Assembly: GCF_003334335.1 (NCBI RefSeq)
Contig: NZ_QOWQ01000032.1
Length of the DNA stretch: 54,189 nucleotides
Source: Escherichia coli
GTDB lineage: Bacteria > Pseudomonadota > Gammaproteobacteria > Enterobacterales > Enterobacteriaceae
Reading direction: 5' to 3' (one strand)
Shown: positions 1 through 1,368 of the stretch, piece by piece
How the letters are laid out: each line of letters starts with the position of its first letter
Position numbering within the stretch: position 1 is the stretch's first letter
Made by a program: the position numbers and the translations under genes
The notes under the pieces: generated by a model
Database searches by the model: none
The model's input: the letters and a program-made list of their open reading frames with translations, nothing else
Told to the model about the DNA's origin: nothing

Positions 1-260
1 TGTCGTCGCCGGTAACTCACTGTGCGCGTCATCGTAGCGGTAGCGTACTGTCTCCCCGCTGCGCGATGTCTCCGATATCGTCAGGTAGGCCATTTTGTCC
101 AGCACCTGCGCAAATTCAAGGGAGAGAAACTGCTGGCTGACCAGGGAGAGATCGAGGGAAAAGAGCGAAGAGAGTGACTGGTTCAGATGAAAGGAAACCA
201 CCGCAAAAGCATCCGGCGGCAGGCCGTCCACTTCCAGTGTGAAACGTAATCCGGTTGACA
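1..260 (-). pseudogene. rhsE: 5' part of an Rhs-element ORF (continues beyond window start): VgrG-like N-terminus fused to Rhs core YD-repeat sequence
   Basis: Manual translation of minus strand from ATG at 258-260: MSTGLRFTLEVDGLPPDAFAVVSFHLNQSLSSLFSLDLSLVSQQFLSLEFAQVLDKMAYLT then ISETSRSGETVRYRYDDAHSELPATT. First ~62 aa resemble a T6SS VgrG N-terminus and the remainder an Rhs core segment, as I recall them. ORF runs off the window edge. Position matches rhsE next to yncH in K-12. Confidence 0.55.
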
Positions 261-1080
261 TAGCAACCTCCGTGAAAATGAATAATAATCCGCACATATT
301 GCATGTACAACATGTCGGGCGGATGAGATAAGCGAGTCGACATCTGGCGTTACCGGGGAATATCAGAAAAATGTCATGGTTATGTGATGATTTAGTCTGG
401 GATTTTACTTCAGAGAAACGGGTGTCTGTTTAGTCAACAAAATAATCACAAACGCAACGGATGGGTTCTCGACGTTATTCACGACAGGCTCGTACATTAC
501 AGCGAGTAATAAAAAACCTGATATGCAAAGTCAAACCAATATTCATAATGTCTTTTTATTCACAACAATAAATAATTCAATAACAATCATTGAAATGAAT
601 GATGGTTTGTATAAGGAATATACGCTACCGCCCCACCCTGATAACATGATCTGCACATTGCCATCTTAACGTCGTTAAACACTAGCTTAATAGTGGATAT
701 TTCAAATTAGGAATTTATTAAATTCACCTGATGAATATAATAAGCAAATAGCATAGAAAATAATGACAACTCCCCCGAGGGGACCATTTCCAAAGCACTG
801 CACCACCACCTGGTGCCGGATGATCTTGCTTCAGTGGTAAGAGTACCTGATGCATTGTTCCCAAAATGGTGTTTTCCCCTGCCCCTCCAATAATGTGTAG
901 CTCTCACTTGATAATCTATTGATTAGGTGATATTAAGAATCAACATTTAAAATACATCCATTTTCTTGAATAAATCAACATGTTTATTAATCAATTGCTG
1001 TTTTAGCTCTGACTCATCAAGCTCTCCATATTTGTCCTACAGATAATTGCGAATAAATACAGAGAACGCCATTTATCCTT

Positions 1081-1293
1081 TTAGCATACCTGCCGGATAT
1101 TTTTATTTGTATTAATATTAATTGCATCTCCAACTCCGAGCATATCCATCATTAAAAACATTTTGAGATTATAGAATGCCTGTGATAACAACTGAAACAT
1201 CTGCACAATGTGAATAGTTAGTTTCTTTTCAGAGGAAATGAAATAGACACGCTGAATGAAAAGGAGAGTGATATAAATTAAAAAACATACCAT
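1081..1293 (-). CDS. yncH: small hypothetical protein (70 aa) in AT-rich DNA
   Basis: 70-aa ORF with ATG start at 1291-1293, located between the GST homolog and the rhs fragment where K-12 has the 70-aa yncH. Sequence itself not recognised, only size and position. Confidence 0.4.
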   Translation of the reverse strand: MVCFLIYITLLFIQRVYFISSEKKLTIHIVQMFQLLSQAFYNLKMFLMMDMLGVGDAININTNKNIRQVC

Positions 1294-1368
1294 GAATTTA
1301 ATTAATTACGCCCATCATTGTGGATAAAGTTACTGAATAATAAATAACATAATCTTCTGGTATCCCAC

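Follow-up and report, generated by a model that had tools for sequence, protein, structure and literature searches.

A rare in-frame deletion allele of the Escherichia coli RhsE element and its AT-rich 5′ region

Introduction

The window analysed here, a stretch of 54,189 nucleotides of Escherichia coli DNA (assembly GCF_003334335.1, contig NZ_QOWQ01000032.1), begins with an ORF that reads from VgrG-like into Rhs-like sequence and is followed by about 1 kb of AT-rich DNA in which genes are scarce. This arrangement raises the questions of how the two coding sequences came to be joined, whether the product could still act as an effector and what the AT-rich DNA contains. The feature was found to be an ordinary decayed locus, in which the well-known RhsE element carries a rare in-frame deletion. 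The reading developed below, which is very probably correct, is of a broken vgrG-rhsE copy that arose as a T6SS island decayed by microhomology deletion, that most likely encodes an inactive effector and whose AT-rich 5′ region is bound by H-NS in K-12.

Results and discussion

The window begins inside the RhsE element

Over its leftmost 7 kb the window corresponds to the 32.9-min region of E. coli K-12 and contains, next to yncH (1081-1293, minus strand), the following genes:

1369-1986, minus strand: yncG
2202-3752, plus strand: ORF, ansP
3865-4926, minus strand: yncE
5168-7270, plus strand: TonB-dependent receptor gene pqqU/yncD

Identity of the window to strain EC416 was 99.99 % over 9,340 bp, and to K-12 it was 99.96 %, counted from position 329 rightwards. 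Sequence comparison places its left end inside the RhsE element of K-12-like E. coli, an orphan T6SS island in which the order is yncH, an AT-rich leader, vgrG, rhsE, the putative immunity gene ydcD and H-repeat ISAs1 copies. The RhsE locus is recognised by its position between yncG/yncH and ydcD, H-repeat ISAs1 and pptA; yncG and yncH were present in the window itself, and the ydcD side was read in EC416.

A single in-frame deletion joins vgrG to rhs

The features at the left edge of the window are as follows:

1-261, minus strand: 5′ end (87 codons) of the chimeric vgrG'::rhsE ORF, from translation, the EC416 annotation and NCBIfam and Pfam domains
76-261, minus strand: vgrG codons 1-62, the sole VgrG sequence remaining (62/62 identity to the VgrG of strain LR-03; TIGR03361 positions 1-60)
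75-77, no strand: deletion junction, an ATA microhomology common to the vgrG side and the rhs side (three-way comparison with the intact island of E. coli C; Blast coordinates overlapping by 3 nt)
1-74, minus strand: Rhs core, from Rhs residue ~502 of 1407 (RHS_core profile positions 495 onward)
267-271, minus strand: Shine-Dalgarno sequence GGAGG of vgrG, kept (direct reading of the sequence)

The ATG of the chimera lies at window positions 261-259 on the minus strand and the frame leaves the window at its left edge. In genomes with an identical junction the full-length product has 969 aa (EC416 annotation 6352-9261 of locus L001, WP_242898435.1). Residues 1-62 matched the N-terminus of the 702-aa VgrG of LR-03 at 62 of 62 positions. 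Compared with a genuine Rhs N-terminus they gave nothing significant (best E 1.7), so the alignment that would have refuted a VgrG origin was not obtained. Residues 64-969, in the full ORF read from the identical-junction genomes, corresponded to residues 502-1407 of the LR-03 Rhs protein (906/906). An earlier note on this DNA had described a VgrG-Rhs fusion ORF in which about 62 aa of VgrG-like N-terminus are joined to Rhs core, and had ascribed it to a deletion that fused a T6SS spike gene to an rhs core. The fusion and its two partners were borne out by these identities, and the deletion by comparison with the intact islands of E. coli C and LR-03; the start codon begins at 261 and not at 260 as had been given.

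Relative to E. coli C, homology on the vgrG side begins at window position 75 and homology on the rhs side ends at 77. The DNA that is missing amounts to 3,504 bp by comparison with E. coli C and 3,489 bp by comparison with the closer LR-03, both multiples of three, and 640 VgrG residues and 501 Rhs residues of the intact island are gone. Because the deletion length is a multiple of three, a 969-aa chimeric ORF was left open. These comparisons indicate that the fusion is a single in-frame illegitimate (microhomology) deletion inside the RhsE element. Illegitimate recombination at the 3-nt ATA microhomology removed about 3.5 kb in the window lineage, comprising all of vgrG from codon 63 on, the spacer between the two genes and the first 501 codons of rhs, and the chimera that remained retains the vgrG promoter region, Shine-Dalgarno sequence and start codon. 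Although genomes hold several copies of vgrG 5′ ends and Rhs cores (the median is 3 matching places) and repeats of this kind could collapse during assembly, the junction is not an assembly artefact, a reading that can practically be dismissed given an identical junction (340/340) in five independently assembled complete genomes from different studies, the exact 969-aa protein on 11 contigs and two joined segments that are mutually non-homologous, with 3 nt in common.

Profile comparisons showed how much of each family is left. A VgrG/TssI spike protein (TIGR03361/TIGR01646) has a complete gp27-like and gp5-like core of ~500 residues that scores above the curated cutoff; the chimera covered 60 of 513 profile positions with 26.1 bits (cutoff 186), while intact VgrG reached 614 bits. 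Positions 1-60 of the NCBIfam VI_Rhs_Vgr profile matched chimera aa 7-68 and positions 495-1261 of RHS_core matched aa 52-820, both below the family cutoff, as fragments would be. For a full-length RHS core (NF041261), which spans profile positions 1-1261 at more than 2000 bits, the chimera matched positions 495-1261 with 1673 bits and the intact neighbour scored 2777 bits. The general features of Rhs cores were nevertheless present, namely YD repeats, a DPxG-(18)-DPxG arrangement and a variable C-terminal tip, with matches to TIGR01643 and TIGR03696. Pfam identified RHS_repeat, RHS (PF03527) at 716-752 and DUF6973 at 860-926. The two motifs, DPIG at chimera residue 794 and DPMG at 816, fall outside the window, to its left, and their positions come from the identical-junction genome EC416. 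A PDB sequence search with the DUF6973 tip gave insignificant matches only. The 969-aa protein listed in RefSeq as 'RHS repeat domain-containing protein' is a deletion chimera and not a native gene.

The allele is rare and belongs to a series of RhsE deletions

Allele frequencies were determined in 5,426 complete E. coli genomes. Some match to window positions 1-1400 was found in 3,870 of these, with at least 80 % covered in 2,986, and about 2,704 had an uninterrupted vgrG-3′/rhs-5′ junction. The K-12-type junction was present in 437 genomes, many of them laboratory derivatives. The window junction was detected in five (EC416, PEC1009, LR-29-1, GDSC2BY4G and EEC_W5), which were mutually identical over the probe. 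One of the 11 contigs of a large protein collection that carried the exact 969-aa product had it named 'rhsE element core protein'.

Intact vgrG-rhs islands, such as those of E. coli C, LR-03 and EHEC EDL933 (z2257-z2261), share the leader, the vgrG 5′ end, the 3′ two-thirds of rhs, the tip and ydcD with the window allele. They encode separate VgrG (702-708 aa) and Rhs (1,407 aa) proteins, whereas the window allele is a single fused ORF in which both are truncated. In EDL933 the gene called rhsE sits downstream of its own vgrG (PMC7216683).

The K-12 rhsE pseudogene (b1456) occupies the same chromosomal site as the window allele, with yncG and yncH as neighbours on one side and then ydcD, yncO, yncI, ydcC and pptA. 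The DNA shared by the two alleles is 99.9 % identical and their Rhs portions are identical; both are N-terminally truncated rhs genes, and both are joined at a 3-nt microhomology. With LR-03 as the reference, K-12 has lost 4,432 bp and the window allele 3,489 bp, and the K-12 deletion wholly encloses that of the window. K-12 homology resumes at window position 329, 68 nt upstream of the vgrG ATG, and the deletion runs from there into the rhs core, with the vgrG start, the Shine-Dalgarno sequence and 67 nt of leader gone. What is left in K-12 is a startless fragment, whereas the window allele retains 62 vgrG codons in frame.

Compared with EC416, K-12 is without positions 8389-9328 of locus L001, a segment of 940 bp flanked by TAA microhomology. 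K-12 rhsE may thus be a second-step derivative (940 bp, TAA) of a window-type fusion, with the window allele as its precursor. Alternatively, the K-12 allele could have lost its 4,432 bp independently, starting from an intact ancestor that resembled LR-03. The K-12 and window alleles both differ from LR-03 at one site. Of nine differences in the left flank, the IS-like ydcC holds a cluster of eight and ydcD the remaining one; the right flank has two. These are too few to order the K-12 and window deletions. No known allele is closer to the K-12 rhsE pseudogene than that of the window, which may represent the state from which the pseudogene arose.

Besides the window and K-12 alleles, at least three independent deletion alleles exist. 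Relative to LR-03, the B-strain allele has a 2,412-bp deletion with a 7-nt filler at the joint, the CFSAN051542 allele a 5,110-bp deletion, and the 2017.02.03CC allele a 2,874-bp in-frame deletion that results in a 1,174-aa vgrG-rhs fusion annotated by PGAP as tssI/VgrG (L007 6352-9876). With the exception of the B strain, the joints of these other deletions overlap by 0-4 nt. The existence of several independent deletion alleles indicates that decay of the RhsE island by internal deletion is recurrent. This fits the picture of rhs loci that occur as intact genes, pseudogenes or relics across strains (PMC2935791; PMC3032704), and the window adds a rare in-frame allele to the decay series of K-12, B, CFSAN051542 and 2017.02.03CC.

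The chimera is most likely an inactive effector remnant

Residues 1-560 of the intact Rhs protein include DUF6531 (aa 46-123) together with a weak PAAR motif and the earliest of the YD repeats. The N-terminal region for mounting on VgrG (DUF6531, PAAR-like) is absent from the chimera, having been deleted upstream of Rhs residue 502. In solved T6SS Rhs structures the region that matches the chimera starts deep in the chain; in 7q97, of 1426 residues, it does so at residue 620. The Rhs structure 8qjd, from S. bongori, is described with 'core domain residues 360-1420'. Since the matching region starts far inside these chains, part of the cocoon shell would be missing. The product holds 62 residues of the VgrG gp27-like domain. 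Gone are the Rhs N-terminus with its DUF6531/PAAR-like region and the beginning of the YD-repeat cocoon, with the DPxG autoproteolysis motifs and the DUF6973 C-terminal tip retained. Judged from the architecture of VgrG trimers and Rhs cocoons, such a protein is predicted to be unable to trimerise as a spike, to load onto one or to close a cocoon; what is left is most likely the remnant of an effector that no longer works.

Specialised ('evolved') VgrG proteins and PAAR-Rhs fusions likewise carry spike-family and toxin-carrying sequence in one polypeptide. Natural fusions of this kind keep a complete VgrG or PAAR domain to which the effector is appended. The chimera, by contrast, has profile positions 1-60 of 513 left, and the resemblance is superficial.

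Expression of the chimera appears possible, as the ORF is intact and in frame behind a Shine-Dalgarno sequence, an ATG and the upstream leader. The in-frame chimera might then have been kept because it is useful. Transcription and translation from the vgrG start into the 17-nt overlap with ydcD could sustain expression of the immunity gene and protect a T6SS-less cell from RhsE-armed relatives, or the truncated protein could release an active DUF6973 tip. The preserved frame, Shine-Dalgarno sequence and leader are consistent with this, as are the intact DPxG-(18)-DPxG motifs and tip, the overlap of ydcD with the 3′ end of rhs in identical-junction genomes (17 nt in EC416), the isolation of the allele from pig, bird, human, vegetable and chicken, and the fact that two of the four deletion alleles that retain the ATG are in frame. 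However, two of four is indistinguishable from the chance expectation of one-third, and the K-12, B and CFSAN051542 alleles have all kept ydcD although none is an in-frame fusion. The five genomes carry no signal of selection because they are identical over the probe, and at five in 5,426 the allele is rare. A useful chimera is consequently given little credence, and an inactive remnant is the preferred reading. A hint as to whether the host may have T6SS core genes comes from a probe containing vgrG, which had just two matching places in the identical-junction genomes and three to five in most genomes with an intact vgrG.

The AT-rich stretch is the accessory 5′ portion of the island

The DNA between the chimera and yncG consists of the following parts:

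262-745, minus strand: non-coding AT-rich vgrG leader/promoter module, also found upstream of the cusS-nfrA vgrG genes (85 % and 78 % identical copies)
746-1080, no strand: spacer specific to the yncH-bearing form of the locus, with no conserved ORF (allele comparison)
1081-1293, minus strand: yncH, a 70-aa DUF5445 ORFan (Pfam PF17520, E 9.7e-41)
1294-1370, no strand: right-hand edge of the accessory segment, with its boundary at the yncG stop codon (yncH-less genomes align from 1371)

Positions 343-1368 have a GC content of 34.8 %, the lowest value in the window, against 49.2 % for the window as a whole. A GC content as low was found in 0.34 % of all 1026-bp stretches in the window, and those below 38 % GC all begin between 168 and 709, over this same region. 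The strongly AT-rich composition claimed in the earlier note was thus upheld when computed, and departs clearly from the window average.

The segment was missing from about a third of genomes. In these, homology to the window extends rightwards only, from position 1371 at the yncG stop, and other T6SS islands are in place. Positions 343-1368 proved to be a two-part mosaic of the leader (262-745) and a module (746-1370) confined to the yncH-bearing form of the locus. Taken together, the comparisons identify the AT-rich stretch as accessory DNA, the 5′ portion of the RhsE island. Two marks of H-NS-bound xenogeneic DNA, an AT content above that of the genome and a patchy presence across strains, apply to it.

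Published binding data bear on the suggestion that this DNA is horizontally acquired and silenced by H-NS. In K-12, genomic SELEX (gSELEX) placed RpoD-holoenzyme and H-NS sites in the yncH>rhsE spacer, with TTGACT-17-TATTAC as the best promoter (PMC3946193), and PhoB ChIP-seq gave a weak site at NC_000913.3 coordinate 1527862 that was flagged as lying within a region bound by H-NS in vivo (PMC10294691). The heterologous AT-binding protein Rok binds rhsE in E. coli (PMC2978689). Peaks for RpoN, RpoS and FlhDC were reported by gSELEX in or near rhsE-ydcD, partly left of the window and in differing coordinate systems (PMC8743547, PMC5493296, PMC9962212). The H-NS, RpoD and PhoB data all come from K-12, which is without window positions 262-328, and they support the H-NS idea for homologous DNA (99.9 % identical). 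The accessory status and the H-NS binding of the K-12 homologue therefore stand, while for the window strain we infer silencing. The segment shares low GC, presence/absence polymorphism, a sharp boundary at a core gene and H-NS occupancy of the K-12 homologue with H-NS-silenced acquired DNA. It differs in that the sequence at 620-656, which it has in common with E. albertii, is older than the island; it is not otherwise distinctive.

The vgrG leader contains a conserved core

Three elements were located in the leader:

620-656, extending to ~764, minus strand: 37-nt GC-richer core GTGCAGATCATGTTATCAGGGTGGGGCGGTAGCGTAT, overlapping a promoter-like TTATCA-16-TATATT (644..617) and kept upstream of every T6SS island type at the locus
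506-534, minus strand: sigma-70 promoter-like TTGACT-17-TATTAC (PMC3946193 Table 3, K-12 yncH>rhsE spacer; unique match in the window)
361-378, plus strand: PhoB ChIP-seq motif TATCAGAAAAATGTCATG (PMC10294691 Table 1, coordinate 1527862)

Copies of the leader attached to the vgrG start at the cusS-nfrA locus of other strains were 85 % and 78 % identical, with indels that are not multiples of three. Among nine alleles of the region the leader was the least variable segment, with 3.5 % variable columns compared with 11.2 % for the vgrG 5′ end, 8.0-8.3 % for 746-1293 and 5.0 % for yncG. This low variability could reflect constraint on function, a recent spread of the leader or gene conversion among vgrG loci. 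In the alternative PAAR-vgrG islands at the site, a sequence 92-95 % identical to the 37-nt core lies some 300 nt upstream of PAAR, and longer versions of the core survive in B2/ST131 remnants, in Escherichia sp. E1V33 and in E. albertii.

Several candidate regulatory elements were discarded. TTGACT-17-TATTAC (534..506) is not a conserved element of the leader, as an 8-nt deletion disrupts the site in the cusS-locus copies. For a sigma-54 promoter in the core, the GG/GC spacing in TGGCAATGTGCA is off consensus, and the RpoN gSELEX peak that prompted the idea, given as between yncH and ydcD (PMC8743547), is probably inside rhsE. A Fur/Dam switch at the GATC of the core was set aside since the versions in ST131, E1V33 and E. 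albertii have lost this GATC.

Because the core is kept upstream of every type of T6SS island at the yncG locus and in other Escherichia, the ~480-bp leader could be read as a dedicated H-NS-gated control module of orphan Escherichia vgrG islands, in which case in-frame chimeras might persist in T6SS-less lineages by keeping the ydcD immunity gene expressed from the module. This reading is speculative and was judged improbable. The leader and its 37-nt core are the sole lead that reaches beyond the RhsE locus, and could be used for studying the regulation of orphan vgrG islands.

yncH is the one annotated gene in the AT-rich stretch

The single weak 70-aa ORF that had been noticed in 343-1368 turned out to be the annotated gene yncH (1081-1293), with a Pfam match to DUF5445. 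The PF17520 match (E 9.7e-41) covers aa 19-70 and the family is without known function; NCBIfam profiles gave no family for YncH. A database of 5.8 billion proteins contained 157 homologues, and the best 120 of the 157 were all at least 83 % identical, with every source name Escherichia or Enterobacteriaceae. The reading frame was open in eight of nine alleles and frameshifted in one. Of its variable sites, 2, 9 and 7 fell on the first, second and third codon positions (4, 1 and 16 in the vgrG 5′ end), so that in this small sample of nine alleles yncH showed no sign of protein-level selection.

It had also been proposed that small toxin/immunity genes or sRNAs could be hidden in 343-1368. The conservation of the leader, unusual for non-coding DNA (3.5 % against 8 % variable columns in neighbouring segments), the retention of the 37-nt core across island types and Escherichia species, and a yncH frame open in most alleles would be compatible with functional small genes or an RNA. 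In contrast, searches returned no Rfam 15 match at E<=1 in window positions 1-2300 under permissive filters and no tRNA or tmRNA remnant of an integration site, and RNA folding of the leader or putative 5′ UTR was no better than that of shuffles (z −1.15). PADLOC matched no defence family to any of the five small unannotated ORFs of greatest length that lie within the region or overlap it (116-343, 523-669, 707-907, 724-864 and 1017-1133). None of the small ORFs of the region had a coding-like substitution pattern and none survives in the cusS-locus copies of the leader, where the indels include one of 1 nt inside a 31-aa ORF. ORFs in 702-907 are broken in four of nine alleles, and yncH itself has the substitution pattern and narrow distribution given above. 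The proposal found no support in these searches, and hidden functional genes or an sRNA are thought unlikely.

Variation at the yncG/ansP-pptA/yddH site

The site from yncG/ansP to pptA/yddH is a hot spot of alternative orphan T6SS islands (loci L009, L010, L011 and L013). Its variants include PAAR-vgrG-DUF4123-effector arrays, a C39/M35 peptidase cluster and, in B2 strains, a lone ISAs1 copy. IS1 insertions were present in the probe-matched region of some genomes, in H111 at window positions 262-1080 and in H71 and H96 at 600-2250, and strain 2017.02.03CC has an ISVsa5 copy between yncG and ansP (L007 11739-12947). From about position 18428 onward the window diverges from EC416 (L020 10061) at hicB, where EC416 carries a prophage; judged by ORF sizes alone, the window continues K-12-like beyond this point. 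In Escherichia sp. E1V33 (L019 6262-7145), a 176-aa ORF with an HEMMH metallopeptidase-like motif and a 118-aa lipoprotein-like ORF lie downstream of the core and precede a 664-aa ORF taken as a putative vgrG. The 176-aa and 118-aa ORFs may be a candidate effector/immunity pair.
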